A DNA stretch of 33,848 nucleotides. Source: Vicinamibacterales bacterium. Its GTDB lineage: Bacteria; Acidobacteriota; Vicinamibacteria; Vicinamibacterales; UBA8438. The position numbers were made by a program, and so were the translations under genes. The stretch spans positions 1-33,848 of the forward strand of contig JASLOY010000001.1 in NCBI GenBank assembly GCA_030745255.1, in the 5' to 3' direction. Position 1 is the first letter of the stretch, and each line of letters starts with the position of its first letter. Shown here piece after piece: positions 12,280 to 27,162 of this stretch. Under the pieces are notes generated by a model. It was not told where the DNA came from. It worked only from the letters and a program-made list of their open reading frames with translations, and did no database searches.

Positions 12280-13496
12280 GCTCGCCCCGCCGACCGGTTG
12301 CTGCTCGGTGGCACAGCGCCGAGCACCTCCCGACACAGATGCTCGAGCCGCTCGGCTCTCTTCTCCCAACTGTACTGAACCGCATCGTCGAAGGCGCCGT
12401 GAGCGATCCGTTCCGCGAATGCTCGGTCGTGGAGCACCCGCCGAACACCGTCGGCTAATCGTTCGGGCTTATCTGGCTCGACGAGGACGGCGTTCTCACC
12501 GTCGCGCAAGACTTCGCGAATCGCCGGCAGGTCGGACGCCACGATCGGCTTGCCGAGCGCCATGTACTCGAACAGCTTCATCGGGGAAGTGTACTGCGTG
12601 AAGCTGCGCGCACCGGTCACCGGCAGGATGAGCAGGTCGGCCGCGGCGAGCAGCGGTGAAACCCTCGACGGCTCGACCTGTCCGGTGAATTCCACTCGCT
12701 CGTCCAAGCTCAGTTCGCTGGTGAGACCGCGCACCTTCGCAAGATCCACATCGTTCGGGTAGCCGCCGATGATCACCGCCCGGACCTCCGGCAACTGCGC
12801 CACGGCGCGCAACAGGATCTCCACACCCTTCCCCGGATACAGATGGCCCGCGTAGGCCAGGACCGGCGTCTCACCGACCGACGGCGGCGTGAACCGTCGC
12901 GCTGGATTCAGGCGCGCGCCGCTGGGAGCCACGAGTAGCCGCGATCTCTCGCCGAACCGGGCAGCCAGATCCGAAGCAATGCCTCGCGTGATCGTCACGT
13001 ATCCTTCGGCACGACTCCAGACTCTCCGCTCCCTGGCGAACAGTCGCTGTTGCTTGCCACGCGAGGCGCCGGCCACCTGCGAAAGCACGTCCGGTCGCTC
13101 GCTCGCCACGATCGGCGCAAACCCGTGCGACTCGTAGACGACCGGAGGCCGGAATCCGGCGGGCAGCCGCAACAGCATGTCGGCGACGCCGAGGTCGCGC
13201 GTCATCACGAGATCCGGCCGCGCCGGCCCCAGCGCGCACCGAAGCGCGTGACTCAGGTAGCCGAGTCGGCGCGGGAGGCCGGCCCGGGGCAAGGTCGGCC
13301 GGCGGATTCGAAGCGCGGGCAGCGGCGGCAACCCGTAGTAGTCGAACGGATCCCGATCGGCATGCCGGCGATCCCGGCGGGCCAGCAAGGTCACCTGATG
13401 TCCGCGAACGGCCAGTGCATGGCACGTTTCCATGATCTGGATGCCGTTGGCGCGTTCGATCGGAAACCGTGTGTCAGCGCAGTGGAGAAGGTACAC
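12276..13496 (-). CDS. Glycosyltransferase family 4
   Basis: GTG start at 13496-13494 (MYLLHCADTRFPIERANGIQIMETCHALAVRGHQVTLL). C-terminal region SPMKLFEYMALGKPIVASDLPAIREVLRDGENAVLV, the same subfamily motif as 9982..11181. Confidence 0.9.
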   Translation of the reverse strand: MYLLHCADTRFPIERANGIQIMETCHALAVRGHQVTLLARRDRRHADRDPFDYYGLPPLPALRIRRPTLPRAGLPRRLGYLSHALRCALGPARPDLVMTRDLGVADMLLRLPAGFRPPVVYESHGFAPIVASERPDVLSQVAGASRGKQQRLFARERRVWSRAEGYVTITRGIASDLAARFGERSRLLVAPSGARLNPARRFTPPSVGETPVLAYAGHLYPGKGVEILLRAVAQLPEVRAVIIGGYPNDVDLAKVRGLTSELSLDERVEFTGQVEPSRVSPLLAAADLLILPVTGARSFTQYTSPMKLFEYMALGKPIVASDLPAIREVLRDGENAVLVEPDKPERLADGVRRVLHDRAFAERIAHGAFDDAVQYSWEKRAERLEHLCREVLGAVPPSSNRSAGRA

Positions 13497-13516: not shown

Positions 13517-14971
13517 TCACTGGCTATCGGAGTCATTCGCCTGGTAGAACGAACTCCGGTCGAAGAGATAGCGATACGCCAATCGCGGCGCCTCCCGGGG
13601 CACGACCACGAACGTGTTATAGGCGTTGCGCGAGAGCTGCAAACGCTGTCGGTCCATGAGATTGGCGCCAAACTGAGCCATCAACCCCAGATTCCACCAG
13701 ACCGAGAGCGCACAGACGCCCCAGGCCGCTCGGCGAAGGGCGGTACCGCGAATCGCCTGGAGTGCCGCCGCGAGCCCGACGACCCACACGACCGTCAACC
13801 CGACGAAACGGCGCTGGCCGAACGCCCCAGCCGCTGTCCAGGAATCGACGCTTCCGGTCACGTAGATCTGGGTGGCCACCATCAGACACAGAATCAGTCC
13901 GATTCGCCGCGTGTCGACCCGGTCGGCCGTCCCGTCGCTCGCCGACCATGCCATCCAGAGCAACCCCCCGGCCGCAACGAGCAAGAGCGGCGTCCAGACG
14001 AACAGGCCATGCTCCGGTGAGAACAGCACCTGCAGGCCGTGGGGCGCCAGCCAGTTCATCTTTTCGGTCACGACATCAGGAGGGCCGAGCCGGCCATTCA
14101 AGACGACGTAACTCATCGCCTGTGGGAGGTAGACAGTCGCGGACACGCCGCTGCCCACGCAGGCAGCGGTCAACCAGGATCGTGCCGCCTTGATTCGATC
14201 ACTGGAAGCGCTCACGTTCGCGATCGCCGTCCAGGTGAAATCCACCACAGGCCCGACCGCCAGCAGGAGATCTTGCTCTCGGACCATCGCCATCAGCGCT
14301 GTCGCTGCGCCCAGGGCCGCCATTCCCGGCAAAGACCAGGAGCGCCGGACGCGCAACCAGACCAGGGTGAACAGTGCCACCGCGAACGCCGAGCATGCAT
14401 GCGCCATCCCCGGCGCGATGTGGGTATAGAAGAGCAACGGTGTGCCGATCCAGATCACGGACCCGGCCACAACGCCACGACCCAGGAGCCGTCGCACGAT
14501 GGCCATGGAAATAGCAACTGCAAGCAACCCGTACACCGCCGATCCGTACGCGAGCGCCGACAGGTAGGGCTGGGAAAAGCCGTCGACCGCGACGCCGGAG
14601 CCGGCCAGGCGCATGCCTCGAGCCGTGAGATCTCCCACCGCATAGAAGGGTGCCCACAACAGAGCCGAGCCAATCGTGCCGAAGTTGTAGCGGAGGCCGG
14701 TCGGCGTCTCGAACTCGAGAAATGTTTCGTGGAACCCCCGGGCACGCGCGATTCCACGGTCGTAGAAGTACTCGTACTCGTTTTGAAACGAGACGTCGTG
14801 ATCGAACCAGAGCGATCGCAGGTAGGCGAAATACTGAATCTCGTCCGACGCGTAGAGCCGTGTCGTGACGGTGGGTAGCGAGAGCAGGAAGACGAGCACG
14901 AGCGGAAGGCCCACCCCTACTCGACCTGTCAGCGCATCGTCCAGAATCCGTAGGCGGCGGGGAATCTGCAT
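13517..14971 (-). CDS. Polytopic membrane protein, GT-C-like candidate (paralogue family member 1)
   Basis: 484-aa ORF with ATG 14971-14969 and many TM helices. First-loop motif SDEIQYFAYLRSLWFDHDVSFQNEY. Later blocks are IGSALLWAPFY, VREQD, FSPEHGLFVWTPLLL and WTAAGAFGQRRFVGL. All of these are shared with 18608..20647 and 24622..25995. Confidence 0.82.
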   Translation of the reverse strand: MQIPRRLRILDDALTGRVGVGLPLVLVFLLSLPTVTTRLYASDEIQYFAYLRSLWFDHDVSFQNEYEYFYDRGIARARGFHETFLEFETPTGLRYNFGTIGSALLWAPFYAVGDLTARGMRLAGSGVAVDGFSQPYLSALAYGSAVYGLLAVAISMAIVRRLLGRGVVAGSVIWIGTPLLFYTHIAPGMAHACSAFAVALFTLVWLRVRRSWSLPGMAALGAATALMAMVREQDLLLAVGPVVDFTWTAIANVSASSDRIKAARSWLTAACVGSGVSATVYLPQAMSYVVLNGRLGPPDVVTEKMNWLAPHGLQVLFSPEHGLFVWTPLLLVAAGGLLWMAWSASDGTADRVDTRRIGLILCLMVATQIYVTGSVDSWTAAGAFGQRRFVGLTVVWVVGLAAALQAIRGTALRRAAWGVCALSVWWNLGLMAQFGANLMDRQRLQLSRNAYNTFVVVPREAPRLAYRYLFDRSSFYQANDSDSQ

Positions 14972-15057
14972 CGCGACCGAACGGGTCGCACTATACCAAA
15001 TCAGCCCGGACGCCCTATCGGCCGCGGCACGTCGGAACGGGCTAGAATCTCCATAAC

Positions 15058-15810
15058 GTGGACGAGCTGCTGAGAGCGACCTGCGAGGCCGAGCGCGCGC
15101 ACTTCTGGTATCGCGGTTTTCGTCGGTTCGTCGAACCGTTCCTGGCGCAGGCCATACAAGGCGTCAGCCGTCCCCGGATCCTCGACTGCGGCTGCGGCAC
15201 GGGTGCGAACCTGGCGATGCTCGCAACCTACGGCCAGGACTTCGGCTTCGATCTGGCTGGGGCCGGCGTCGCCTACGCCGCCGCCGCGGGGCATCGACGG
15301 ATCGCCCGCGCGACGGTCGCTCGGGTCCCCTTTCCTGACCACAGCTTCGATGTCGTGACGTCCTTCGACGTCCTGTACTGCCTCGAAGATGAAGTCGAAC
15401 GCGCCGCGATTGACGAGATGTTCAGGTTGGTGCGACGAGGCGGCGCGCTCGTGGCCAACGTCCCCGCCATGGACGTGCTGACCGGCGATCACTCGATCTT
15501 CGTCGGCGAGCGCCGCCGCTACTCGCGCCAGGGGCTCACGCGTCGGCTTCAGCGAGCTGGGTTTCAGATCATCAGGATGACTCACACGAATGCTACGCTC
15601 TTCCTGCCGATGCTCAGCATCCGGCTCTTTCAGCAACTCCGACGTCAGGGGGCGGCAACGGTCGCCCAGAGCGACTTCGCGATGCCACCGGGTCCCGTCA
15701 ACGGCCTGCTCGCGCTACTGCTGGCAGCCGAGGCCGGCGTCGTGCGGTTTCTGGATCTGCCGCTAGGAAGTTCGATACTCTGTCTCGCCAGGAAGCCGGC
15801 CGCCGAATGA
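15058..15810 (+). CDS. Class I SAM-dependent methyltransferase
   Basis: GTG 15058. Motif I ILDCGCGTGANL, then FGFDL, DVVTSFDVLYCL and LVRRGGALV. The stop overlaps the next start (ATGA at 15807-15810). Confidence 0.88.
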   Translation: MDELLRATCEAERAHFWYRGFRRFVEPFLAQAIQGVSRPRILDCGCGTGANLAMLATYGQDFGFDLAGAGVAYAAAAGHRRIARATVARVPFPDHSFDVVTSFDVLYCLEDEVERAAIDEMFRLVRRGGALVANVPAMDVLTGDHSIFVGERRRYSRQGLTRRLQRAGFQIIRMTHTNATLFLPMLSIRLFQQLRRQGAATVAQSDFAMPPGPVNGLLALLLAAEAGVVRFLDLPLGSSILCLARKPAAE

Positions 15811-16607
15811 CGCCAGAACCCGAGACGTCCAACCCCGCGACCAGCCTCAGCGTCTTCTTTCCCGCATACAACGACGGAGGGACGATCGCGAGCATGGTCG
15901 TCGCTGCGGTGACGACCGCACGCGAGTTGACGGCGGACTACGAGGTGATCGTCGTCAACGACGGCAGTGTCGACGCGACGCGCGACGTCCTCGAGGAACT
16001 GGCGCGCGTATACCCGACACTCCGAGTCATCCACCACCCGAGGAATGGCGGATACGGTGCGGCGCTGCGCACGGGTTTCGAGGCTGCCACCAAGGACTTG
16101 GTCTTCTACACCGACGGGGACGCACAGTACGATCCGCGGGAAATGACCCTGCTCTGGCGGCGTCTCACGCCGGATGTCGATTTCGTCAATGGGTACAAGA
16201 TCAGTCGATCCGACCCGTTGCACCGAATCGTCATCGGCCGCGTGTACCACCACGTCGTCAAAGCCTTGTTTGGACTGCGACTCCGGGACGTCGATTGCGA
16301 CTTCCGGCTGATGCGCCGCTGTGTTTTCGAACGAGTCACGCTCGAGAAGAGCAGCGGCGTCATCTGTCTGGAACTCATGAAGAAGGTGCAGGACGCCGGC
16401 TTTTGTATGGTCGAAGTTCCGGTGCATCACTACCACCGGGCGTACGGACAATCGCAGTTCTTCAACGTGAGGCGGATCGTGCGCACCGCCTTCGACGTGT
16501 TCGCCCTGTGGCGTGCACTGATGTGGTGTCGGAAGGACGGCCGACCGCTGTCCCACGCCGAACCGCCCACGACCGACAACGACGCTCGATCCAACGATGC
16601 CGAATAA
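15807..16607 (+). CDS. GT2 glycosyltransferase (DPM1/ArnC-like catalytic domain, no clear TM pair)
   Basis: Motifs are LSVFFPAYNDGGTI, VVNDGSVDATRDVLEELARVYP, PRNGGYGAALRTGF and YTDGDAQYDPREM. The C-terminus has only an amphipathic-looking helix (IVRTAFDVFALWRALMW). Confidence 0.88.
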   Translation: MTPEPETSNPATSLSVFFPAYNDGGTIASMVVAAVTTARELTADYEVIVVNDGSVDATRDVLEELARVYPTLRVIHHPRNGGYGAALRTGFEAATKDLVFYTDGDAQYDPREMTLLWRRLTPDVDFVNGYKISRSDPLHRIVIGRVYHHVVKALFGLRLRDVDCDFRLMRRCVFERVTLEKSSGVICLELMKKVQDAGFCMVEVPVHHYHRAYGQSQFFNVRRIVRTAFDVFALWRALMWCRKDGRPLSHAEPPTTDNDARSNDAE

Positions 16608-17703
16608 GCGTGAGCGCGTCACGATCCCGTTTCTGACGCTGAAACCTGGTGAAGAGGCTGAGGCGATCGATGCAGCCATCCGGCGAGTCGTCACCCGTGG
16701 ATGGTTCGTGCTTGGCCCTGAAGTCGAGAGCTTCGAACGCGAGTTCGCGACCGCGTCAGGAATAGCGCATACCGTCGGCGTGGGCAACGGTACGGACGCG
16801 CTGTTCCTGCTGCTCAAGGCACTCGGCATCGGGCCCGGCGATGAGGTCATCACGACGCCACTCTCGGCGGCGTTCAGCGCGTTGGCGATCGTGATGGCTG
16901 GCGCACGACCAGTGTTCGCAGATATCGACGTCAACCGCCTGACGATTGATCCGGCGGCCGTGCGGGCGGCGGTGGGTCCGAAGACGGCGGCCATCCTCCC
17001 GGTTCACCTCTACGGTCAGCCAGCCGATATGCCGGCCCTGGCCGACGTCGCGAGCCGCCACCATCTCGCCCTCATCGAAGATTGCTGCCAGGCGCACCTC
17101 GCCACCTGCGCGGGACGCCCAGTCGGCACCTTCGGGCAGGGCGGCGCGTTCAGCTTCTATCCGACAAAGAATCTGGGTGCTGTGGGTGATGGCGGCGTGG
17201 CCTGCACCGGTGATGAGCAGACGGCGGAGCGGATCAGAAAGCTGCGGAACGGTGGCCAGTCCGCACAGTATCGCCACGACCTGGCGGGCGTGAACTCCCG
17301 CCTCGATGACATCCAGGCGGCGGTGCTGCGCGCAAAGCTTCCGTTCCTCGAACGGTGGACGGCGCGGCGTCGGGCGCTAGCGGCGTTGTACCGAGAGCAC
17401 CTTGCCGTCGTCGAACCGACAGTGCCCGCTGAGCACGACCCGGGCCACGTCTACCACCTGTTCCCGGTCCGATCAGTGGCGCGCGACCGGCTTCGACAGC
17501 ATCTGCGGACCTCGGGTATCGATACCCTCATCCACTACCCCACGCCCCTCACGCAGCAACCTGCGTTCGCGGAGCACCGGCCAGCGGCGGCTCCAGTTGC
17601 TGAGGCGATCTGTCGCGAGCTCGTCTCCCTGCCATTGCACCCGGCACTCACCGACGCCTCCGCGAACCAGGTCATCGACGCGGTGCGCGCCTTTGCGCCG
17701 TGA
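16597..17703 (+). CDS. DegT/DnrJ/EryC1/StrS-family PLP-dependent sugar aminotransferase
   Basis: Motifs are IPFLTLKPGEEAEAIDAAIRRVVTRGWFVLGPEV, GVGNGTDALFLLLKALGIGPGDEV, and FSFYPTKNLGAVGDGG, which holds the PLP lysine. Overlaps the upstream gene by 11 nt. Confidence 0.92.
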   Translation: MPNKRERVTIPFLTLKPGEEAEAIDAAIRRVVTRGWFVLGPEVESFEREFATASGIAHTVGVGNGTDALFLLLKALGIGPGDEVITTPLSAAFSALAIVMAGARPVFADIDVNRLTIDPAAVRAAVGPKTAAILPVHLYGQPADMPALADVASRHHLALIEDCCQAHLATCAGRPVGTFGQGGAFSFYPTKNLGAVGDGGVACTGDEQTAERIRKLRNGGQSAQYRHDLAGVNSRLDDIQAAVLRAKLPFLERWTARRRALAALYREHLAVVEPTVPAEHDPGHVYHLFPVRSVARDRLRQHLRTSGIDTLIHYPTPLTQQPAFAEHRPAAAPVAEAICRELVSLPLHPALTDASANQVIDAVRAFAP

Positions 17704-17713
17704 GAATACAACG

Positions 17714-18127
17714 ATGCATAGCGCACATCCTGAATTGTCCGTGGGCAGATGGACGCGTCGCGCCATTACGCACCGCGTGATTGGAGGGCTGACGCGCGAT
17801 GTCATCTACCGGAAACAGACAGAGTTGTCGCGTCGGTACGCCGAGCAATTTCGTCCAGATCTGCGCTGCAGTCAGGCCGGGGAGGATGGCATCATTCGGG
17901 AAATCGTTCGGCGGCTGCAACTTTCCGACGGATGGTTTGTCGAACTCGGCGCGGGCGATGGTGTTCTCTTCAGCAACACCTACGCTTTGCGCAGAAACGG
18001 ATGGCGAGGCGTCGGCATCGAATCCGACCCCGACCGCTTCGTCGCCTTGCAGCAGATAGCGGCTTGCGAGAGAGAACTACGTGACGATGTGCCGGCGTGT
18101 TTCGGCGGAGGGCAAGGATTGTCTTGA
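17714..18127 (+). CDS. FkbM-like (Methyltransf_21-type) methyltransferase, N-terminal fragment; probably one frameshifted gene together with 18081..18527
   Basis: ATG 17714 lies 10 nt after the DegT stop. The fragment holds the first half of the domain: CSQAGEDGIIREIVRRLQLSDGWFVELGAGDGVLFSNTYALRRNGWRGVGIESDPDRF. The frame ends at TGA 18125-18127 after a non-homologous tail. Confidence 0.65.
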   Translation: MHSAHPELSVGRWTRRAITHRVIGGLTRDVIYRKQTELSRRYAEQFRPDLRCSQAGEDGIIREIVRRLQLSDGWFVELGAGDGVLFSNTYALRRNGWRGVGIESDPDRFVALQQIAACERELRDDVPACFGGGQGLS

Positions 18128-18527
18128 CGTCGTGTTGAAAGAATCGCCGTTGCCGCGCTACTTCGATCTCTTCAGCCTTGACATCGACAGCTATGACTAC
18201 TGGATCTGGCGTTCTCTTCAGGACTATCGCCCCACGATTGTTGTGGTGGAGTACAACCCTTTCTTTGCTCCCACAGAGGCGAAGACACTTCCTCTTAACC
18301 TGGCGACAGAGTGGCCGTACTTCGGCGCTAGCCCCGCCGCCTTGGAAAGCCTCGGCCGTGCCAAGGACTACCGGCTAGTTGGGTATACGAGCGGATTGAA
18401 CCTGTTCTTCGTGCTTGAACAATTCGCGCGTGGCCTGTTTGAACGGCTCCCGGTCCGCTGCGTTCCAACGGAGCCGCACGATGTCAGGCAGCAGTGGACG
18501 CAATGGGACCGCTTTGTAGATGTCTGA
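18081..18527 (+). CDS. FkbM-like methyltransferase, C-terminal fragment (frame +1 relative to 17714..18127)
   Basis: This frame is open from 18060. It continues the same domain: ENYVTMCRRVSAEGKDCLDVVLKESPLPRYFDLFSLDIDSYDYWIWRSLQDYRPTIVVVEYNP. It has no plausible independent N-terminus. Confidence 0.65.
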   Translation: MTMCRRVSAEGKDCLDVVLKESPLPRYFDLFSLDIDSYDYWIWRSLQDYRPTIVVVEYNPFFAPTEAKTLPLNLATEWPYFGASPAALESLGRAKDYRLVGYTSGLNLFFVLEQFARGLFERLPVRCVPTEPHDVRQQWTQWDRFVDV

Positions 18528-18607
18528 AAGCTAGAGATCGATCCGGGCGCCTGACAACCTGAGCCGACCCGCGGCGTCGATCCACGTCGCCTAGAAGTGT
18601 TGACGCT

Positions 18608-20647
18608 CTACGACTCCTCGAGGACCCGCTGGAGCCGGAGGGTGGCCACTTGAACAGACAGCCGTCTGGTGTCCTCCGAGAGTCCGAGTTCCTCAGGCGA
18701 GACGGCGTACCGATAGCGAAAACGCAGCTGATTCAGGTTGAACCGGAGTACCGCTGCGGGGATCTCAACGCGGTCGACCTGCATGCCCGGCTGAAGCGTC
18801 AGCGTCGCCACGGAGGTCGTGTTCACTTCTATCTCGACAGTCTGTGGTGGCAACCCAGGGCCGATGAATGGTCCCCACTCGAGTTCCAAGAGGTAGTCAT
18901 CCTCGTTCGTCTTGAGGGGAACAAGCACGGTTGACGTCTCGTTGTTTGCCCACCGAAACGAGAAACTTGGATGCTGTTCCCGCGCCGCCCACCCGTGCCC
19001 CAGGAACCGCTCGTCGTCTGGCGCACCAACGTCAATCAAGAGATTGTTGTACGTCCGGCCGCGTAGACGATCGTACACGGGCAGGCCCACATCGTACCGC
19101 CACGCGACGTAGGCGCCAATCGGCAGCGAGAACGGATTGCCGACGCGCTCGTACAACTCGTCCATGACGCTGTTGAACGCCACGCCCTCGGTTGGAGACA
19201 ACGTGCCGTTGCGATAGCCGAGCATGAACACGGTGTTGAATAGCAGTACGGCGCACAGGGTTACGACCGGCGCGATGAGCGGACGTCGCTGGACCGCGGC
19301 CAGGAGGCCAGCCAGGCCGATGGCGAAGACGAGCGCGCAGTTGGCAAAGCGTCGCGCACCAAAGCCCACGCCACCCCACCAGATCTCGACCGCCCCGTTG
19401 ATCCAGACCTGCGCGAGAAAACCGCCGGCCAGCACCAGGGCGACACGCCCGTGGTGGCGCGCGAAGAACATCAGACCAATCAGCGCAGCGCCGATGACGG
19501 GCGTCCACGACAGCAGCCCGCGGTTCGATGAAAAGAGAACGTCGGTCATGTACGGCGGAAGCAACGTCGGTTGAAACGCGTGCTCACGCACCGGTAGGTA
19601 GACCCACGATCCGTAGACGGCCTTCCAGAACACGAGTTGCGGCACGAACGCGGCGAATGCGGCTCCGGTGAACCTGACCAGGTCTCGGCTTCCTGCCCAC
19701 ACCCAAGCACGGCTGTCTCCGCTCCGAGCGCGCCAGGATGACCAGAGGAGATCACCCAGAGGCAGCACCACGAACGCGATGTTCTGCCACCGCACCATCG
19801 CCATGACGCCCGCCGCGGCACCAAGCCAGACCCAGGGCACCCGTGTCGGCAGGTCTCGAGATCTGTGCCAGAGGAAGAGGAACAGCGTGGTCGCGAACAT
19901 CGAGACGCCGTGCACCATCGAATTGTCGACAGTGAGATACCAGATCAGGAACGAGCTGCCGCACAACCCCAGCGTCGACAGGCAAGCCAGTCCCCTGGAG
20001 AAATACTTTCGCAACACCCGATAGATGAGGACGAGACCGACGAATCCGTACAGGAGTGTCCCGAGTCCGATGGCCCGCTGATACGGGAAGTAGTAGCCGT
20101 CGACGCGCAGATCTCCTCCCAGAAGATTCAGCGCGCCAAGCCAGACGTGGCCGAAGATGAAGAAGGGGCTCCAAAGGATTGGTGCACCGAAGGCGTACTG
20201 CCTCGCGCCGTGTCCGCCAAACTCCGCCTCATCGTTGGCGAAGTCGAGGTCCCAGTCCATGACCAGAGACCGCACCTGCACGAAGTAGGAGCGGCCGTCG
20301 GAAGCCGCTCGCTCGAAGCCCAGATGAAACAACAAGAGCAAGAGCAACAGGAATGCGACGAAGACGACACCGACGGCATCGAGCCTCGCGAAGTGCCGCA
20401 TCAGGAAACTGCGCGCGGGGGGTGCTACGTGTCGCGCCAACTGCCTGGTGACCAGCACGAGCACGAAGATGGCCATGAGCCAACCGGCGAGTACCGACGG
20501 GCCGTCGCGATACAGCCAGAGTAACGAGATGTGCCAGACAGCGAAGCAGGCGAGCAACAGGAGGGTCAGCGTGACGCCCCAGGCGTATCTCACCCACGCG
20601 GCCGGGTGACCGTCGTGGCTAAGTGGGTCGGTGGAAGACGCGACCAT
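18608..20647 (-). CDS. Polytopic membrane protein, GT-C-like candidate (paralogue family member 2) with C-terminal soluble domain
   Basis: 679-aa ORF with ATG 20647. First-loop motif SDGRSYFVQVRSLVMDWDLDFANDE. Later blocks are FGAPILWSPFF, VRWQN, FSSNRGLLSWTPVIG and WWGGVGFGARRFANC. The C-terminal ~190 aa are hydrophilic (FSFRWANNETSTVLV ... DTRRLSVQVATLRL). Confidence 0.85.
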   Translation of the reverse strand: MVASSTDPLSHDGHPAAWVRYAWGVTLTLLLLACFAVWHISLLWLYRDGPSVLAGWLMAIFVLVLVTRQLARHVAPPARSFLMRHFARLDAVGVVFVAFLLLLLLLFHLGFERAASDGRSYFVQVRSLVMDWDLDFANDEAEFGGHGARQYAFGAPILWSPFFIFGHVWLGALNLLGGDLRVDGYYFPYQRAIGLGTLLYGFVGLVLIYRVLRKYFSRGLACLSTLGLCGSSFLIWYLTVDNSMVHGVSMFATTLFLFLWHRSRDLPTRVPWVWLGAAAGVMAMVRWQNIAFVVLPLGDLLWSSWRARSGDSRAWVWAGSRDLVRFTGAAFAAFVPQLVFWKAVYGSWVYLPVREHAFQPTLLPPYMTDVLFSSNRGLLSWTPVIGAALIGLMFFARHHGRVALVLAGGFLAQVWINGAVEIWWGGVGFGARRFANCALVFAIGLAGLLAAVQRRPLIAPVVTLCAVLLFNTVFMLGYRNGTLSPTEGVAFNSVMDELYERVGNPFSLPIGAYVAWRYDVGLPVYDRLRGRTYNNLLIDVGAPDDERFLGHGWAAREQHPSFSFRWANNETSTVLVPLKTNEDDYLLELEWGPFIGPGLPPQTVEIEVNTTSVATLTLQPGMQVDRVEIPAAVLRFNLNQLRFRYRYAVSPEELGLSEDTRRLSVQVATLRLQRVLEES

Positions 20648-20724
20648 GATGCATGATACCGGTACAGTCGGCGGCTTCGAACGTCCGCTTCCAGGCTGTA
20701 CAGAGGCGTCGAATCAGATGACGT

Positions 20725-22644
20725 CTATCGCTCCCAGACGCTCAATTCATACGCCGACCAGGGCCGCTCCCTGGACTTCCCGGTCTGCTGGATGAGCAGC
20801 TCATCCGTGTCGTTCGGTGGAAAGTCGACCTCAATGGCGCTCCGAAGGAAGTTGTCACGCATCACGCCTCTGACCAGCGGCGGCAGCCCGCTCCCCTCGT
20901 AGAGGAGAGTTCTCGGCTTCGCTCCCCCGGCTTCGATTCTCAACTCTCTGGGGTAGTCGCCGAAACCCCTCCGGTGGAGATCCAGCCGGAGCCGCGCCAC
21001 GTTGCGGGACCGATCGAAGACGACAGCGATCCATTCGTCCCCCTGCTGCCTGCCACCAGTGAGCCATTCAGTGTTCACGTCTCCGTCGACGAGGAGCGGT
21101 AGCCGATCCTTGTTGTGTGACGCGTCGAGTGCGAACGCGGCATCAGGAATGCGTCGGATCTTGGCCGTCTCCCTAAAGGGGGGCGGCGCGTCCGCCAGAA
21201 AGAAACGCACCAGAGATCCCTCGCTCACCTCGCCGACCAGCTGGTCAGTCGCGGCCCGAAGCGCCTCCACGGTGCGCCGGCCACGCCGGACGTCCTGGTA
21301 GCGATCGGGGTCAATCACGACCTCCCGGATACCGGCTTCACGCCACGCCTTCAGTGCAGGCGCGACCTGCGTCCGATCATCCAGCGGCGAGGTGCTCCGG
21401 GCAAAGAAGCTGCGCAGCGATGGCCACTGCAATCCGCTCGCCTGCGACAGCGGATGCCTTCCAGCCCGGGTCGCCAGCGCCGCATCGAGACTGTCCGGAA
21501 AGAAGTCCTCCGGGACGACGGGCAGCCTCAGCCTGCCGCCGAAGCGCTCGACAGACACCCAGCGAGGCACGGCCTCGGCGTTCGCGCCGTCGGCGGCTAG
21601 CTGGTCGTGACCGGTAAGAATGCGTTCTGTCCGAGCCAGTTGATCTGACAGCCAGCTGGACTCGACCATGACGGCGCGCTGTTCAGGGTAGCGCAGGACA
21701 TTACCGGCGATCATGAGGCCGATCATGAGCCACAGGCCAACGCGCCACGCGAACTGCTTGACATCGAGCCGCGTCAACAGCAGCGATGCTCCAAACAGGA
21801 ACGCGACCTGGACGGAGAAGAAGTAGTACCAATACGAGTGATCGGGGATGGTGTAGACGGGTGGATGGCCGAGAATCATCAACGCACTCATCAGCCAGAG
21901 CCCGCCGACGACCGCGAGTACGAGCATCGTGTCGCAGACAAGTCGCCGCCGCCACACATCTGGTCCGTCCTGGGTCGGCGCGTGCCGCCAGTAGAACCCG
22001 ATCGCTAGCCCCACGGCTCCCCAGAGCGGCACGCCGCCCAGCCAGAACCCCGCCTGCCGGGCGATCAGCTCTCCTGCCCGGCTCCACAGTCCTTGATCCC
22101 AGAGCCCTGCTAGCTCCAGGCGTTGGAAGGTCAGATCCGGATGGTACCCGTTGAGACTGAACACCAACCACGGCGCGACGAGCTGATTGTAGAGGCTCCC
22201 GCTGACGAGGACCGCCAGCAACACTCCACCGATGGCGATCGAGGTTCGGCGATCCGGGCGCGACGAGGGGGGCGAGACCACGACCCACACCACGAACATC
22301 GAGAGGCACAAGACGAGGAAGAACACACCTTGACGATCGGCGAGCGACATGCCGAGCGCGAGGAGGAAGAGCCCGGCGAACGCCCAGGCAGACCGCCCTG
22401 GTGCGCGATGGCTTCTGAGCAGCGCGAGCAGCTGGAAGAGGAACAGGAGCAGCAGCACGGACAGGAGGATCTTGGCCGATCGGTAGAAGATGGCCGTCGA
22501 CGACTGCACGACGATCGTGCTGAGACACCAACTCAGGAGAAACGCCGTGGTGATTCGGTCCAGCCCCAGGAGTCGCCTGGCGCCAGCGGCGTAGAGCCCC
22601 ATGAGGGAGGCCAGACCCAAGACACCGCTAGTCGGCATCAACAA
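20725..22644 (-). CDS. Polytopic membrane protein with C-terminal F5/8 type C (discoidin/CBM32-like) domain; major fragment of a gene apparently split by a frameshift
   Basis: 639-aa ORF (TTG 22644), but the frame stays open upstream to 22743 and encodes sensible sequence there (GAYQARELSYLVDFFDAQVFARLYSWGILLL). About 10 or more TM helices. C-terminus: LLVDGDVNTEWLTGGRQQGDEWIAVVFDRSRNVARLRLDL ... YPRELRIEAGG ... WSAYELSVWER. Confidence 0.82.
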   Translation of the reverse strand: MLMPTSGVLGLASLMGLYAAGARRLLGLDRITTAFLLSWCLSTIVVQSSTAIFYRSAKILLSVLLLLFLFQLLALLRSHRAPGRSAWAFAGLFLLALGMSLADRQGVFFLVLCLSMFVVWVVVSPPSSRPDRRTSIAIGGVLLAVLVSGSLYNQLVAPWLVFSLNGYHPDLTFQRLELAGLWDQGLWSRAGELIARQAGFWLGGVPLWGAVGLAIGFYWRHAPTQDGPDVWRRRLVCDTMLVLAVVGGLWLMSALMILGHPPVYTIPDHSYWYYFFSVQVAFLFGASLLLTRLDVKQFAWRVGLWLMIGLMIAGNVLRYPEQRAVMVESSWLSDQLARTERILTGHDQLAADGANAEAVPRWVSVERFGGRLRLPVVPEDFFPDSLDAALATRAGRHPLSQASGLQWPSLRSFFARSTSPLDDRTQVAPALKAWREAGIREVVIDPDRYQDVRRGRRTVEALRAATDQLVGEVSEGSLVRFFLADAPPPFRETAKIRRIPDAAFALDASHNKDRLPLLVDGDVNTEWLTGGRQQGDEWIAVVFDRSRNVARLRLDLHRRGFGDYPRELRIEAGGAKPRTLLYEGSGLPPLVRGVMRDNFLRSAIEVDFPPNDTDELLIQQTGKSRERPWSAYELSVWER

Positions 22645-22948
22645 CAGGATGCCCCACGAGTACAGACGGGCAAAGACCTGCGCGTCGAAGAAATCGACCA
22701 GATAGCTCAGCTCCCTGGCCTGGTATGCCCCCCCAGTCGTTCAGCGAGGGGTCGAAGATGATCGCGGCGAGTGGCCGGTCTGCCAGATAGTTGAGAATGA
22801 AGGCCAGAGCCTCTTTGTCGACCAGGCCGCGTCCCCAGAATCCAACGGCATGAACGGCGAGCAGAATCGGCAGCAGCCAGACGGCCGAGTTCCAACGGCT
22901 TGCCGAGGTCTCATCACGATCGGCGAGGCTCGGCGTCGCGTCACCCAT
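22628..22948 (-). CDS. N-terminal fragment (first TM helix and loop) of the 20725..22644 membrane protein, separated by a frameshift at a G7 tract
   Basis: ATG 22948-22946 overlaps the upstream gene's stop by 8 nt (ATGGGTGA). It encodes MGDATPSLADRDETSASRWNSAVWLLPILLAVHAVGFWGRGLVDKEALAFILNYLADRPLAAIIFDPSLNDWG and then runs into the homopolymer. The sequence after the tract (GIPGQGAELSGRFLRRAGLCPS...) looks non-coding. Confidence 0.6.
   Translation of the reverse strand: MGDATPSLADRDETSASRWNSAVWLLPILLAVHAVGFWGRGLVDKEALAFILNYLADRPLAAIIFDPSLNDWGGIPGQGAELSGRFLRRAGLCPSVLVGHPVVDAD
22728..22734. repeat. Homopolymer tract C7 (G7 on the coding minus strand) at the frameshift point
   Basis: Direct count: 22727 g, 22728-22734 ccccccc, 22735 a. 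The tract lies inside the 22628-22743 interval where both reading frames are open. Confidence 0.95.
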
Positions 22949-24473
22949 CGGCTATCGAAAGACGGCGCAGCTTGTGGGCACACGCCGCCGCCAGACCCAG
23001 TGGGAGACCAGCAAGCACGAGCGCCACTGGAGCCGAAATGATGCGGAGATGAAACAGGTACATCCACCAGAGATCCAGACTGAACGCAAACTGTGAAGAG
23101 AAATCGCGTGCCAGACCTTCGGCAGCCTTCACTTCCGGGCGGGGCTCCGCACCTGACAGGTAGCGCGCGTTGAGCGGGACGGCCCTCATCGCGGCCTGCG
23201 TATTGAGCACGAGCGCCGCCGAGCCCCACTCCCACCGACGCGCTTCTATGGACCGATATCCAAGCTCAGGCGTGTGGCCGACCTTGGAGAAATCCAGGAG
23301 CACGCCGGGAATCTGGACCGCCACACTACAGATGAGGCCGGCAATCGCGGCACGCCGCCTGAATTCACCGCCTGGGCGCGCGAACCAGACCCCAAGGGGT
23401 AGGCAGAGAAACGGCAGCATCGGAAGCAGGTAGCGAGGGCCGTATGACCGTTCGCCCTCCCAATGAAAGAGCGATGCGTAGAAGCAAAACAGCGTCAACA
23501 TCACTCCGCCGAACAGAATGGCGGTTCGCCGATCGACTCGGCTGAACTCGGCCAGCGCTACCGCGCCCAGAATCAGCAGCGGTGAGTACAGAAACACGGA
23601 GCCTCCCGGGCTAACAAGGAATCCCCAAGCTCCAAGCCAGACTGACCCGATACCCGCCGTCTCATCCCGGAGGTAGCCGGTATCGATGGGGTTCCCGAAT
23701 CGTACAGCGTTGTAGTAGGCGGTTAGGAGGACCGCTACCACGATCGGTGCGGCCACGAGCGCCGTGGCCTGAAAGAACTGCCTCCACTTCGGCCGATACT
23801 CGAGCGCCAGCCAGAGGGTGACCGGCACCGCGATCAACACTAACTCATGGCGCACCAACAAGGCCCAGCCGATGCCAACACCGCCGGCCACCAGCATGCC
23901 CGGTCGAGCGAGGCGAGCACCTACCCAGACGCCGTACACCCCGGCGAGCACGCACAAGGTGGCGAGCGGGGCGCTGAACCCGAACTTGGAGTACGGCCAG
24001 AGCATCGTCGCGAATCCCAACGATAGGGCTGACAGGATGGCCAGCCGGATCGCGCCGAACAGCCTCCAGGTGAACCAGAAGGCCAGCCAGACAATCGCCG
24101 CCGCGGCCACCGCGCTCCCGACCACGAGGCTCGCCTTTCGCACGGCGTCGGCCTTGCCTACGTCGAGACCGGTCAGGCGCTCCGCCGTCGCGCCGGCCAG
24201 GTAGAACGGCGCGCTGTACAGGGCATGCCCGATGCCGTACGGCGCGTAGTACCGCCCGTCGACACCGCGGTGGGCCTCCATACCGAACACGTCGTACGAC
24301 ATCGCCACGGAACCGTGCTCGACGATGCTCTTCGTCACCTCGTAAGTCATGATGTCGGTGGCCATGCTGCCACCGGCCGTCGTGACGTAGAGGCAGAGAC
24401 TCAACAGGAAGACGAGCCGTCCGGCGTGGCTGACCTGCCTGGGTGTCTGGCGGACGATTCGATCCGGATGCAT
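22941..24473 (-). CDS. Polytopic membrane protein, GT-C-like (ArnT/PMT_2-like) glycosyltransferase candidate
   Basis: ORF 22941..24584 (TTG). I prefer ATG 24473-24471 (MHPDRIVRQTPRQVSHAGRLVFLLSLCLYV), because the 37 upstream codons are R/P/S-rich and look non-coding. First-loop motif GGSMATDIMTYEVTKSIVEHGSVAM. Later motifs GGSVFLYSPLLILG and HWEGERSYGPRYLLPMLPFL. Confidence 0.82.
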   Translation of the reverse strand: MHPDRIVRQTPRQVSHAGRLVFLLSLCLYVTTAGGSMATDIMTYEVTKSIVEHGSVAMSYDVFGMEAHRGVDGRYYAPYGIGHALYSAPFYLAGATAERLTGLDVGKADAVRKASLVVGSAVAAAAIVWLAFWFTWRLFGAIRLAILSALSLGFATMLWPYSKFGFSAPLATLCVLAGVYGVWVGARLARPGMLVAGGVGIGWALLVRHELVLIAVPVTLWLALEYRPKWRQFFQATALVAAPIVVAVLLTAYYNAVRFGNPIDTGYLRDETAGIGSVWLGAWGFLVSPGGSVFLYSPLLILGAVALAEFSRVDRRTAILFGGVMLTLFCFYASLFHWEGERSYGPRYLLPMLPFLCLPLGVWFARPGGEFRRRAAIAGLICSVAVQIPGVLLDFSKVGHTPELGYRSIEARRWEWGSAALVLNTQAAMRAVPLNARYLSGAEPRPEVKAAEGLARDFSSQFAFSLDLWWMYLFHLRIISAPVALVLAGLPLGLAAACAHKLRRLSIADG

Positions 24474-24592
24474 TACTCGATCGGAGGATGGCTCGGTGTC
24501 GCCGTCAGAATAGCATGGGAGACGGGTCGGAATTCTCGCGCCGTCGACTCGAATGTACCGTGCCGGCCGCGAGGGCGCACGCAACCATCGGC

Positions 24593-24598
24593 TATAAT
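24593..24598 (+). promoter_or_regulatory. Candidate -10 box (perfect TATAAT) for the 24622.. operon
   Basis: TATAAT at 24593-24598 in the divergent intergenic region. It is followed by the purine-rich GAGGAAGG (24609-24616) 5 nt before TTG 24622. No convincing -35 (TTGACA-like) hexamer sits at 17 nt spacing. Confidence 0.3.
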
Positions 24599-24621
24599 CG
24601 CGTCACTCGAGGAAGGCTCTC

Positions 24622-25995
24622 TTGATCGTGTCGAACGGCCTGCACCTGCATCAACGCGAACGGCGTCCAATCCTCACGTTCTCCGCCATTGGGTGTGGCC
24701 TTGCCGTGGCGTACACACTTGCGGTGACGCTCTTTGCCGGCGCGGCAGGACAGATCATCGAAGGCGATGCCGTGCAGTACTATGCCTATCTTCGATCCCT
24801 GGTCTTCGATCAGGACGTCAACTTCATCAATGACTACCAATTGTTGTACGGGTCCGACGGCGCGTCGAACGTGTGGCTGGACACCACGACCGATACCGGA
24901 CACGCCATTAACTTGATGTCGATCGGCCCAGCGCTGCTGTGGTTGCCGTTCTTCCTCGTCGCCTGTGGTCTCGTGGCGCTGCTCCGGACGGCTGGCGTGG
25001 TTGTCGCGTTCGACGGTATCAGCACGCCGTTTCAACTCTCCGCGGGCATCGCCAGCATCGCGTACGCGACGCTAGGAGCCTATCTCTGCTATCGCGCATG
25101 CGTCCGCTTCTGGCCGCCTGCCGCGTCGCTCTGGGGCACGCTGGCCGCCTGGCTGGCGACGCCGGCACTTTATTACTGCCTCGTCTCGCCGGCCTACTCC
25201 CACGCGACGTCGCTGTTCGTCGTGGCACTGTTCATCTGGACCTGGCTGCGGACGATGGGGGACCAGCGCGCCATCAGGTATGGGTTGCTCGGAATCTTGG
25301 TTGGTCTGGCCGCGCTCGTCCGTTGGCAGAACGTCACGATCCTGATCTTGCCCATGGCCGAACTCGTCCGTGAGCTACGTGACGACAAGACAACTCTGCG
25401 CGGCGCGGCGGTTCAGGTCGGGGTGCTGGGCGCGGCGTCGCTTGTGGCGTTCTTGCCGCAGATGTTCGCCTGGAAACAGATCTACGGGCACTGGCTCCTC
25501 ACGCCGCAGGGCGAAGGATTCATGCAATGGATGAACCCGCAGGTCTGGGCGGTCCTCTTCTCGCTGAATCACGGCCTTTTCTCCTGGACGCCGGCCGTCC
25601 TCGTCGCCGTGCTCGGTCTGGCCGTGCTGGTCGCGCGACACCCGTTCGTGGGTTGGAACAGCGTGGCGGTCCTGCTGACTGCCGTCTACATCAACGCTGC
25701 GGTCGTCGACTGGTGGGCAGGCGAAGCGTTCGGCGCGCGACGCTTCATCGGCCTTACTCCGCTCTTCGCTCTGGGACTCGCAGCAGTGTTTTCGACACGT
25801 CTCCTCGTGAGACGACCACAGCTGGTGGGGGTGGCCGCCAGCGGTCTGATCGTGTACAACCTGCTGTTTCTCGTGCAGTATCAGCTGTTCATGCGAGGCT
25901 ACAGTGAGTTGGTCGCCTATCCGACCTCCGCCAAACAGATTCTCATTGATCGTGTGATCCTTCCATGGACGCTCTTCCGCCATTGGATCGGATGA
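24622..25995 (+). CDS. Polytopic membrane protein, GT-C-like candidate (paralogue family member 3)
   Basis: 457-aa ORF starting at TTG 24622 (GTG 24628 is an alternative), preceded by GAGGAAGG. First-loop motif GDAVQYYAYLRSLVFDQDVNFINDY. Later blocks are IGPALLWLPFF, VRWQN, FSLNHGLFSWTPAVL and WWAGEAFGARRFIGL. Confidence 0.85.
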   Translation: MIVSNGLHLHQRERRPILTFSAIGCGLAVAYTLAVTLFAGAAGQIIEGDAVQYYAYLRSLVFDQDVNFINDYQLLYGSDGASNVWLDTTTDTGHAINLMSIGPALLWLPFFLVACGLVALLRTAGVVVAFDGISTPFQLSAGIASIAYATLGAYLCYRACVRFWPPAASLWGTLAAWLATPALYYCLVSPAYSHATSLFVVALFIWTWLRTMGDQRAIRYGLLGILVGLAALVRWQNVTILILPMAELVRELRDDKTTLRGAAVQVGVLGAASLVAFLPQMFAWKQIYGHWLLTPQGEGFMQWMNPQVWAVLFSLNHGLFSWTPAVLVAVLGLAVLVARHPFVGWNSVAVLLTAVYINAAVVDWWAGEAFGARRFIGLTPLFALGLAAVFSTRLLVRRPQLVGVAASGLIVYNLLFLVQYQLFMRGYSELVAYPTSAKQILIDRVILPWTLFRHWIG

Positions 25996-26022
25996 GCCGG
26001 CAACGGGCGTAGACTGCCTTCC

Positions 26023-27162
26023 GTGCGCATCTGCCACATCACGCCGCATCTACCCCCGGACCAGGCGGCCAATGCCCTGCTGCCGTTTCACCTCGGCGCG
26101 TGGGCCGTGCAAGCCGGCGACGCCGTCACGTACATCGCGCACCACCCGCGCACGCCCGGCGGCACGACCTGGCCCGGTCCGGTCACCTGGATTCCGTCAC
26201 ATCGCCGCCGCGGGGCGTGGATGCGGCACACACGATTGGGCGCGGTGGTGAGCGCGACGGACGTCGTCCGGCGCGGCGCACCGCGTATCCGCGAGGCCGA
26301 TGTCGTCCATGTGCACGGCAACGGTCTGCTGACCGAAGTCGGCGCAGCCGTGGCGTCATGGCAACGGAAGCCCACCGTGCTCACGTTGTACGGCACGGAC
26401 GTCTGGCATTACCGCGCTCCGACGCTCAAGCCCGATCTGTTCGCCAGGGCGTTCCGACAGGCCTCGCACGTCACGTTCTACAGCGATGGCCTCAGGTCGC
26501 GGGCGCGGGAACTGGGGTTGGCCCAGGACGCGACCAGCGTCATCTACCCTCCGGTGGCGGACAGCTTTACGTGGCAGAGCCAGGCCGGCCAAGTGGACGC
26601 CCGCCGGCAGCTCGGGCTGACCAGGCGCCACGTGCTCGTCAACGTGAAGCATCTACACCCCTACGCGGCGCAGCATACGCTCATCGAAGCGATGCCCGCT
26701 TTGCTGCAGACCCACCCTGATACGCACCTGATCGTCTGCGGAAGCGGTCCACTGCTGGCCCACCTCCAGCAGATGGCCGACGCGGCCGGCGTCGGCCGCC
26801 ACGTCACGTTCGCGGGTCTGGTCGACAACCAGACTGTCGCGCAGTACTGCGCCGCTGCCGATCTGTTCGTTCTGCCATCGGTCCTCGAAGCCTGCCCGAC
26901 CGTGGCGCTGGAGGCGCTCGCGTGCGGCACCCCGGTCGTAACGGCCGACAGCCCGGGCGGGGTCGAGTTGGGCGGTCGGTTCGGCCGAGATGTCGTGGTT
27001 GTGCCGCGTGAGGATCCAGACGCGCTCGCGGCCGCCATTCGGGTCCAACTCGATGAACGGCGGCGCACGACGACATCCACCGCGCAACAGATTGAACAGG
27101 AGCTCAGGCTCTCCGTCGTGGGCGCGCGGTTCCGAAGCATTTACGAGGCGTGTCTCGCGTGA
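26023..27162 (+). CDS. Glycosyltransferase family 4
   Basis: GTG 26023 (MRICHITPHLPPDQAANALLPFHLG). C-terminal region LPSVLEACPTVALEALACGTPVVTADSPGGVELG. Confidence 0.88.
   Translation: MRICHITPHLPPDQAANALLPFHLGAWAVQAGDAVTYIAHHPRTPGGTTWPGPVTWIPSHRRRGAWMRHTRLGAVVSATDVVRRGAPRIREADVVHVHGNGLLTEVGAAVASWQRKPTVLTLYGTDVWHYRAPTLKPDLFARAFRQASHVTFYSDGLRSRARELGLAQDATSVIYPPVADSFTWQSQAGQVDARRQLGLTRRHVLVNVKHLHPYAAQHTLIEAMPALLQTHPDTHLIVCGSGPLLAHLQQMADAAGVGRHVTFAGLVDNQTVAQYCAAADLFVLPSVLEACPTVALEALACGTPVVTADSPGGVELGGRFGRDVVVVPREDPDALAAAIRVQLDERRRTTTSTAQQIEQELRLSVVGARFRSIYEACLA

Follow-up and report, generated by a model that had tools for sequence, protein, structure and literature searches.

The stretch of DNA considered here (33,848 nt from a Vicinamibacterales bacterium, a soil Acidobacterium, in the following called the window; G+C 62-70%) consists almost entirely of glycan-biosynthesis genes, as judged from Pfam and NCBIfam scans. 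Three of these genes, termed paralogues A, B and C (Table 1), code for polytopic membrane proteins which are predicted with high confidence to be glycosyltransferases (GT) of the GT-C fold that depend on polyprenyl-linked sugars. A is the first gene of a minus-strand operon (14971 to 7455), B is the last gene of another minus-strand operon with the order D, F, B, and C opens a plus-strand operon (24622 to 32971). A preliminary description of the window, made from the sequence alone, had assigned the three open reading frames (ORFs) to three separate transcription units and had aligned the proteins by eye over the whole membrane domain. The ORF list and the translations bear out their coordinates and strands, gene order places each of them in a unit of its own, and the five sequence blocks quoted at the time occur in all three proteins and fall into register in a MAFFT alignment. 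In pairwise BLASTP, A and C share 32% identity (441 aa, E 2e-48), A and B 28% (390 aa, E 3e-37), and B and C 29% (431 aa, E 1e-50). Since this similarity far exceeds chance and spans essentially the entire membrane domain, A, B and C can be regarded as true paralogues. Each of them has its own orthologue group, with identities of 50-93% for A, 41-93% for B and 48-87% for C, and hence the triplication appears to be ancient and functionally differentiated.

The fold assignment is based on AlphaFold2 models of C and B. The model of C, calculated from an alignment of 143 sequences (C, A, B as well as orthologues of C and A), reached a mean pLDDT of 94.1 and a pTM of 0.93 and displays 11 core transmembrane (TM) helices. 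When searched against the PDB with Foldseek, its best 36 matches are GT-C-fold proteins without exception, namely STT3/oligosaccharyltransferase (OST), ALG3, AglB, ArnT (5F15), ALG12, EmbA/B, PglB, AftA, DPY19, Pmt4, PIG-U, GPI-MT-I, ALG9 and Pmt1/2, with query-normalised TM-scores (TMq) of up to 0.57, and beyond rank 36 unrelated transporters follow at a probability below 0.15. The model of B, obtained from 107 orthologues (pLDDT 92.9, pTM 0.90), shows a GT-C core of 11 TM helices, which is preceded by two additional ones at the N-terminus and followed by a beta-sandwich at the C-terminus. Its best whole-chain matches are EmbA/B/C (E 5e-6), followed by ALG12, AftA, AglB, ArnT and STT3. As the models of C and B both match GT-C proteins, the GT-C fold is established as far as prediction allows; the GT-C-like nature suggested in the preliminary description is thereby upheld, with the GT-C core seen in both models and only GT-C-fold proteins at the top of the whole-chain matches. 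Neither model contains a beta-trefoil insertion, and A and C end directly after the last helix, without any C-terminal periplasmic domain.

The family to which the paralogues belong is large. A profile built from the three proteins retrieves 9,438 clusters at E<=1e-3 and still 3,119 clusters at E<=1e-30 from 1.84 billion representatives at 50% identity. Protein lengths are distributed bimodally, with maxima at about 450-500 aa (A/C type) and 600-700 aa (B type), and named members originate from Vicinamibacterales and other Acidobacteriota, Gemmatimonadota and Bacillota (e.g. Thermincola). This breadth is taken from the cluster searches; the genome scan for related loci described below used narrow patterns, which returned almost only Vicinamibacterales, and is therefore no measure of taxonomic distribution. 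A dedicated family model exists neither in Pfam nor in NCBIfam. B exceeds the gathering threshold of PMT_2 (PF13231, 26.1 bits) with 26.5 bits, confined to residues 191-314 (124 of 679), and the same model is matched weakly by 34 of 76 diverse members at E<=1e-3 (best E 2.3e-9). In contrast to E. coli ArnT, which scores 211 bits, none of A, B, C and the 76 representatives matches PF02366 (PMT). Besides PMT_2, neither STT3 nor any other GT-C family of Pfam was detected in the 76 representatives, STT3, MIR, TPR and PMT_4TMC gave no Pfam match in A, B and C either, and the WWDYG motif is missing from the translations of the three paralogues. Sequence searches of the PDB using profiles of 3, 143 and 76 sequences yielded no match even at E<=10. 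Where NCBI and UniRef name members at all, they use generic terms such as 'hypothetical protein', 'glycosyltransferase family 39 protein' and 'RgtA/B/C/D-like domain-containing protein', some B orthologues are labelled 'dolichyl-phosphate-mannose-protein mannosyltransferase' (NCBI/JGI), and literature searches found no paper specific to the family. Hence, Pfam searches using hidden Markov models gave no high-coverage match to a characterised family, and the family may be called uncharacterised, as proposed earlier, in that dedicated model, PDB sequence match and publication are all missing; the proposal needs qualification in that 34 of 76 members weakly match PMT_2 and some are named GT39. 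Without a dedicated model or a paper, with generic names and with PMT_2 as the sole link, the family is thus a deep branch, large, widespread and uncharacterised, within the ArnT/PMT_2 ('RgtA-D-like') superfamily.

Conservation within the family was counted in 150 representatives of at most 50% mutual identity, with residues numbered according to C. Y185 is invariant (150/150), followed by P324 (148/150), D49 and D63 (147/150 each), R373 (146/150), S59, H194 and G318 (145/150 each), R234 (144/150), D65 and Q280 (142/150 each), N70 (137/150), Y53 (135/150) and R58 (126/150). The relaxed pattern of the full first loop is matched by 102 of these 150 sequences, and together with the conservation of the individual positions this identifies the first-loop motif as a genuine family signature. 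Its elements are D-x3-Y-x4-R-S-x3-D-x-D-x4-N in loop 1, the pair Y185/H194, VRWQ, and FG-x-RRF. Recomputed nucleotide coordinates of the motif in A, B and C agree with those given in the preliminary description, where the loop had been considered foreign to all characterised GT-C families. This holds for the second half, R-S-L-x2-D-x-D-x2-F-x-N-[DE], which is family-specific, but not for the first half, D-x3-Y-x4-R, which is spaced like DETRYAEISR of ArnT. In a hand alignment, to which no statistics apply, the loop of E. coli ArnT (DETRYAEISREMLASGDW) and that of C have D(0), Y(+4), R(+9), a hydrophobic residue (+11) and D(+16) in common, the ArnT stretch P-D-E-T-R-Y-A-E-I-S-R-E-M-L-A-S-G-D-W being set against G-D-A-V-Q-Y-Y-A-Y-L-R-S-L-V-F-D-Q-D-V of C. 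The motif thus appears to extend the loop-1 signature of ArnT/PMT rather than to depart from it. The D-x3-Y core also occurs in protein D (TDIMTYEV, aligned by hhalign) and in protein E (KDPGVYMN, by eye). Further correspondences emerge when B and ArnT are mapped onto the PMT_2 profile, where residues 191-314 of B cover positions 22-143 and residues 61-222 of ArnT positions 2-160. In these coordinates, the Arg/Lys-rich loop R210-R218 of B lands on RLWRDKR of ArnT, H246 of B (H194 in C) lands on or beside ArnT D135, which we take to be the second essential Asp (D158 in C. metallidurans ArnT), and R286 in VRWQN of B (R234 in C) lands about on K179 in MTKG of ArnT.

Regarding topology, Lys and Arg residues in the 143-sequence alignment cluster in the N-terminal segment as well as in the loops that follow helices 135-161, 193-210, 235-253 and 373-390, which are placed on the cytoplasmic side, while the first loop, 64 residues long, is rich in acidic residues (9.3 Asp/Glu per sequence). 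In B, the Arg-rich segment RQLARHVAPPARSFLMRHFARLD lies directly ahead of core TM1. From this charge distribution and the Arg-rich segment we infer for A, B and C a cytoplasmic N-terminus, a periplasmic loop 1, 11 core TM helices and a C-terminus on the outer side. The acidic loop, for which the preliminary description had likewise assumed a periplasmic location, is hence predicted from the Lys and Arg counts to face the periplasm. With the C-terminus outside, the C-terminal domain of B, which resembles carbohydrate-binding modules (CBM), would be periplasmic, too.

Two further GT-C candidates and a third membrane protein accompany the paralogues. Protein D aligns with the 76-sequence family profile over 341 columns (hhalign probability 97.4%, E 1e-11), and since the alignment takes in the loop-1 Asp as well as blocks iv and v, D is the relative that the preliminary description had recognised from these blocks. 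It also scores 63 bits (E 2e-17) against the NCBIfam model LA_3751/LA_3752 (putative Leptospira GT), below the cut-off of 200 bits. The ORF list starts D at a TTG (24584); a 510-aa orthologue (locus L002) and the coordinates in the preliminary description favour the ATG at 24473, in which case 148 bp of intergenic DNA separate the divergently oriented genes D and C. Protein E reaches 23.9 bits against PMT_2, under the cut-off of 26.1, and a PDB search with its single sequence gave no match. Because its membrane domain shows no significant hhalign alignment with the family profiles, the recurrence of block v claimed for E could not be confirmed. Instead, residues 694-833 of E are homologous to residues 533-673 of B (probability 92%, E 6.5e-7), so that E seems to be tied to the family by a C-terminal domain in common with B and not by block v. 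In Foldseek searches, the beta-sandwich formed by this domain of B (residues about 536-675) matches CBM6 (5FUI, TMt 0.61), CBM35 (2W3J, TMt 0.59) and the carbohydrate-binding domains of BcsB. The domain of about 140 aa has no Pfam match in B or E and could be a novel CBM family carried by different GT-C cores. With D related according to hhalign and E scoring below the PMT_2 threshold, the locus therefore has four, probably five GT-C-type proteins. F, located between D and B (20725-22948, minus strand), is polytopic in its N-terminal part and weakly resembles the F5/8-type-C domain at its C-terminus; it had been considered as a further relative (20725-22644) and was rejected, as a comparison found it unrelated. 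Its reading frame is split in two with a junction near 22700-22731, which represents a frameshift or an assembly indel, the L002 orthologue (756 aa) being 87% identical.

Table 1 Features of the window (positions in nt of the window; residue numbers refer to the respective protein)
Feature	Position	Strand	Remarks
Paralogue A, putative GT-C-fold membrane glycosyltransferase	13517-14971	-	484 aa
Paralogue B, putative GT-C-fold glycosyltransferase	18608-20647	-	679 aa
Paralogue C, GT-C core alone	24622-25995	+	457 aa
First-loop signature of A	14774-14848	-	SDEIQYFAYLRSLWFDHDVSFQNEY; residues 42-66
First-loop signature of B	20228-20302	-	SDGRSYFVQVRSLVMDWDLDFANDE; residues 116-140
First-loop signature of C	24763-24837	+	GDAVQYYAYLRSLVFDQDVNFINDY; residues 48-72; D49 putative catalytic Asp
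C-terminal CBM6/CBM35/BcsB-like beta-sandwich of B	18608-19051	-	aa ~533-679; predicted periplasmic
C-terminal domain of E	5841-6263	+	in common with B
D, distant relative, putative GT-C	22941-24473	-	510 aa from ATG at 24473
E, PMT_2-like polytopic protein	3762-6263	+	833 aa
Block co-transcribed downstream of A	7455-13496	-	four GT4 and one S-adenosylmethionine (SAM) methyltransferase
GT2a, GtrB/ArnC/AglJ-like putative polyprenyl-phosphate glycosyltransferase	568-1605	+	two C-terminal TM helices
GT2b, GtrB/ArnC/AglJ/PpgS-like putative polyprenyl-phosphate glycosyltransferase	1606-2466	+	C-terminal TM helices
GT2c, ArnC/DPM1-like soluble GT2	15807-16607	+	no TM helices; divergent from A
DegT/ArnB-like sugar aminotransferase	16597-17703	+	Pfam 380 bits
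Wzx/MOP-family flippase-like protein	27150-28622	+	Polysacc_synt_3/Polysacc_synt; HfsF-like; in the operon of C
GT9 (heptosyltransferase-family)	6270-7484	+	adjoins the conserved A block
GT4 genes, about nine	11-604, 2493-3746, 7455-8732, 8729-9985, 9982-11181, 12276-13496, 26023-27162, 31610-32971
SAM methyltransferases	11185-12369, 15058-15810, 28666-29538		11185-12369 with Trm112p-like N-terminus
GNAT acetyltransferase	30587-31594

Several of the remaining genes of the window encode proteins resembling those of the Arn pathway. GT2b and GT2c share 30% (E 6e-19) and 25% identity (E 8e-23), respectively, with E. coli ArnC, and the DegT/ArnB-like aminotransferase has 33% identity with ArnB of the same species (E 3e-54). 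The best NCBIfam neighbours of GT2a, GT2b and GT2c are AglJ, PpgS, dolichyl-P-hexose transferase and ArnC, and the C-terminal TM hairpin typical for GtrB/ArnC is present in GT2a and GT2b. The locus is bounded by ThiS/ThiG past position 32971; except at this end, all intergenic gaps are shorter than 150 bp. Two minus-strand ORFs (15001-15636 and 15645-16994) were rejected as genes, being high-GC shadows of plus-strand genes with strong Pfam matches, namely the methyltransferase at 15058-15810 and GT2c. A plus-strand ORF resembling FkbM-like methyltransferases is divided between two reading frames (17402-18127 and 18081-18527). No Pfam model matches it and none of the 81 related loci has a counterpart; it may have been inserted recently or be a pseudogene.

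These 81 loci comprise L002 and 80 loci from the genome scan, of which 78 are labelled Acidobacteriota/Vicinamibacterales and two as metagenome-assembled genomes of the gammaproteobacterial Woeseiaceae. In about 70 of the 80, A is followed by the series GT4-methyltransferase-GT4-GT4-GT4, and about 15 loci carry GT9 and E past this block. B, C, D, F, GT2c and DegT form the variable part, found only in the closest relatives. Eight of these (L002-L008 and L010) encode an NAD-dependent short-chain dehydrogenase/reductase (SDR) between GT2c and DegT (1824-2819 in L002), which shares 27% identity with the decarboxylase half of ArnA from E. coli. The two Woeseiaceae-binned loci, L008 and L010, have the gene order of the acidobacterial L007 and near-equal identities to the window proteins, which points to mis-binning or horizontal transfer. 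In one Vicinamibacteria genome (L084, 20627-21437), the A-GT4 block, which includes a TMEM260_N/PMT_2 protein, is only a few genes away from one coding for BamA/Omp85, a weak hint at a link to the outer-membrane envelope. Outside Vicinamibacterales, the neighbourhoods of five diverse members were examined, and only the one from Gemmatimonadota resembles the window (GT9, GT2, Trm112p). There, a 934-aa member (CP070758.1; L086, 7797-12066) has a stand-alone Trm112p-like gene on one side and GT9 on the other, with GT2, UbiA and PMT_2 genes close by; together with the Trm112p-like methyltransferase and the GT9 gene of the window (Table 1), this may reflect a cross-phylum association of GT-C, GT9 and Trm112p. 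Furthermore, a metagenomic locus (L087, 1998-4133) encodes a natural GT2-GT-C fusion, P0325, in which a DPM1/GtrB-like GT2 (aa 4-173) precedes a GT-C domain of the family (aa 264-685); its gene adjoins a radical-SAM gene and a gene for a TPR protein.

Taken as a whole, A, B and C are probably periplasmic transferases which transfer sugars from polyprenyl-phosphate donors onto a lipopolysaccharide (LPS) or exopolysaccharide glycan. In such a pathway, GT2a, GT2b or GT2c would load a sugar onto polyprenyl phosphate at the cytoplasmic side, the lipid-linked sugar would then be flipped across the inner membrane, and a GT-C enzyme would move the sugar to the glycan acceptor at the outer face of this membrane. 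The use of polyprenyl-phosphate donors is suggested by the three GT2 genes of the window and by the GT2-GT-C fusion. One of the donors would probably be an amino sugar provided by way of the ArnB-like aminotransferase, whose gene, like the ArnC-like one, adjoins A and is convergent with B. At the level of residues, D49 at the start of a juxtamembrane helix may act on or position the acceptor hydroxyl, R58, R234 and R373/R374 could hold the donor phosphate, and H194 would sit where ArnT has its second essential Asp. The acceptor would be an oligo- or polysaccharide assembled by the cytoplasmic GT4 enzymes, most likely LPS core/O-chain, as suggested by the GT9 linkage in two phyla, or exopolysaccharide, as suggested by the Wzx-like flippase and the CBM-like modules; the CBM6/35-like modules of B and E would serve to hold a polymeric acceptor. 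A, B and C would then catalyze three distinct linkage-, donor- or acceptor-specific steps in parallel to RgtA/B/C, Emb/Aft and the ALG series, and three related periplasmic transfer steps, as envisaged in the preliminary description, are indeed plausible.

Several observations weigh against this assignment. The family has no characterised member, and the GT-C fold also occurs in enzymes with diphosphate-linked donors (STT3/PglB) and in non-catalytic proteins (PIG-U). Neither Pfam nor NCBIfam returns a family for A and C, not even PMT_2 at E<=1, and comparison of the family profile with E. coli ArnT by hhalign produced no meaningful alignment, for which reason the link to ArnT rests on the fold, the marginal PMT_2 match and the hand alignment of the loop. 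The parity of the proposed topology fails unless helix 102-123 of C is juxtamembrane or re-entrant; in ArnT, the helix after YFEKP is the juxtamembrane helix JM2, a counterpart of which is assumed for this helix of C. As to gene content, a small flippase of the GtrA/ArnEF type is missing from the window, most genomes carrying the A operon have no adjacent GT2, and context is variable outside Vicinamibacterales, where the five members examined have no universal gene neighbour. Moreover, the SDR of the eight relatives, an ArnA-C-like dehydratase/decarboxylase, has been cleanly deleted from the window at the 16597-16607 junction; the amino-sugar branch may therefore be incomplete, or the step may be provided from elsewhere.

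A more restricted form of this reading, namely that the paralogues, and A in particular, specifically modify lipid A or the LPS inner core in the manner of ArnT, FlmK and RgtA-D, is conceivable and yet rather doubtful. In many Vicinamibacterales, A is tied to the GT4/methyltransferase block and a GT9 gene, the Gemmatimonadota member adjoins GT9 as well, the A block abuts bamA in one genome, the ArnB/ArnC-like pair stands beside A, and one member is named RgtA/B/C/D-like in UniRef. The window, however, contains no lipid A or 3-deoxy-D-manno-oct-2-ulosonic acid (Kdo) genes, membership in GT9 is no proof of a role in LPS core synthesis, the CBM-like domain of B points to a polymer as acceptor, and the family has members in Bacillota such as Thermincola, which are generally monoderm. 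Precedent for GT-C enzymes acting on lipid A/Kdo is given by ArnT and RgtA/B (PMC4402001). ArnT (GT83; PDB 5EZM/5F15) resembles C in its GT-C fold (Foldseek probability 1.00, TMq 0.51), in the D-x3-Y-x4-R-x-hydrophobic-x4-D spacing of the loop and in the common PMT_2 region, and its pathway is represented in the locus by ArnB- and ArnC-like genes. Unlike ArnT, the family lacks a PF02366 or sequence-profile match and has His at the position of the second essential Asp, A and C are devoid of the C-terminal periplasmic domain, and the locus, in contrast to the Arn pathway, contains neither an ArnE/F-type flippase nor ArnD. In Rhizobium, according to work of the Raetz laboratory, the paralogues RgtA-D are reportedly encoded together, receive their polyprenyl-phosphate donor from one GT2 and act on different LPS positions. 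The window is alike in uniting several paralogous ArnT-like GT-C genes, and the UniRef domain name of one member points the same way; at sequence level the likeness to RgtA-D goes no further than the marginal PMT_2 match.

Less probable is a bacterial counterpart of the ALG line of the endoplasmic reticulum, in which a lipid-linked oligosaccharide built by cytoplasmic GT4 enzymes would be flipped by the Wzx/MOP protein and then elongated on the periplasmic side by up to five GT-C enzymes (A-E) acting one after the other and using three polyprenyl-phosphate sugars supplied by the three GtrB/DPM1-like GT2 enzymes. In structure, ALG12 (9s6t) gives the top TM-score and the lowest root-mean-square deviation (rmsd) to C (TMq 0.57, rmsd 5.9 A), and the eukaryotic lumenal mannosyltransferases ALG3, ALG9 and ALG12 (GT58/GT22) are, like A and C, compact GT-C enzymes without extra domain. 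The pathway logic is alike, too, with cytosolic GT4-type steps, a MOP flippase, Dol-P-sugar formed by a DPM1-like GT2, and several GT-C paralogues. At sequence level, however, no likeness to ALG proteins exists, and the single Pfam link of the family is PMT_2, which is of the GT-C class A type. If this reading were true, the family with its 9,438 clusters would found a new CAZy GT family whose compact members are structurally nearest to ALG12 and ALG9.

Somewhat more unlikely still, A, B and C might use oligosaccharides linked to undecaprenyl diphosphate (Und-PP) and thus represent the polymerase, ligase or oligosaccharyltransferase of the locus. A Wzx-like flippase is encoded while no Wzy, WaaL or Wzz can be recognised in the window, and the lowest Foldseek E-values of C are those of STT3/OST catalytic subunits. 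On the other hand, A and C lack both the periplasmic domain and the WWDYG-type motif of OST, and structures of WaaL, Wzy, RodA and SEDS proteins are missing from the Foldseek matches of C and B, which led to the rejection of a Wzy/WaaL-type polymerase or ligase identity. Besides, the sole sequence-family link is PMT_2, whose characterised members (ArnT, PMT, Rgt) take monophosphate donors, three GtrB/ArnC-like GT2 enzymes would be left without a consumer, and the fusion P0325 physically joins a GT2 to a GT-C enzyme of this very family. Finally, a role of A, B and C as protein O- or N-glycosyltransferases (PMT-, TMTC- or PglB-like) for secreted or envelope proteins, to which the labels of some B orthologues (GT39 or dolichyl-phosphate-mannose-protein mannosyltransferase in NCBI and JGI), the PMT_2 matches and the presence of Pmt4 and STT3 among the structural matches of C might point, is very improbable given that PF02366, MIR, TPR and PMT_4TMC are not matched, that GT39-type names stem from the generic PMT_2 model, that the genes lie in a polysaccharide locus which, besides a Wzx-like flippase, contains about 10 genes of the GT4, GT2 and GT9 families, and that B has a CBM-like domain.

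The preferred assignment as polyprenyl-phosphate-sugar-dependent periplasmic transferases has well-studied parallels. Three-component periplasmic glycosylation by GT2, flippase and GT-C as well as the GT-C/CBM architecture have been described before (PMC11127046), and the founder of GT136, ORF12 of Citrobacter youngae, combines 11 TM helices with a C-terminal beta-rich CBM (PMC11127046). B is likened to this founder by architecture alone (11 TM helices and a C-terminal CBM), and the locus as a whole follows the logic of GtrA/GtrB/GtrC and of C. youngae ORF12-15, consisting of lipid-P-sugar synthase, flippase and GT-C. Unlike the GT136 system, its donor synthases are GT2 enzymes and not UbiA-type PPPRS; unlike both systems, it displays a Wzx-like MOP protein only, with no GtrA or MATE flippase identified, and up to five putative GT-C genes (A-E) in one locus. 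The mycobacterial Emb/Aft enzymes (EmbA/B/C, AftA/D; GT53 and relatives), as best whole-chain structural matches of B, likewise combine a GT-C core with periplasmic carbohydrate-binding modules, and multiple paralogues act successively on one polymer. Emb proteins, however, measure about 1,050-1,090 aa, contain two periplasmic domains and bear no sequence-level likeness to B; because of the size difference, the TM-scores between B and Emb are low (0.35).

Fold, donor logic and multi-paralogue layout are hence all precedented by the Arn, Rgt, Gtr, Emb/Aft and ALG systems, and no new principle is involved; the result is a useful annotation for a large clade of enzymes that is unstudied but belongs to a familiar kind, and mechanistically it is unsurprising. 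If the assignment is true, thousands of membrane proteins now called 'hypothetical' in abundant soil phyla, namely Acidobacteriota, Gemmatimonadota and in part Bacillota, could be given the name of polyprenyl-phosphate-sugar-dependent glycosyltransferases, and once a member has been characterised biochemically, it would probably become the founder of a new CAZy family, as was the case with GT136. The locus itself would be a compact natural case of a single glycan served by several GT-C enzymes together with several lipid-sugar synthases, of use for understanding the envelope and exopolysaccharide chemistry of the barely cultivated Vicinamibacterales as well as for glycoengineering.

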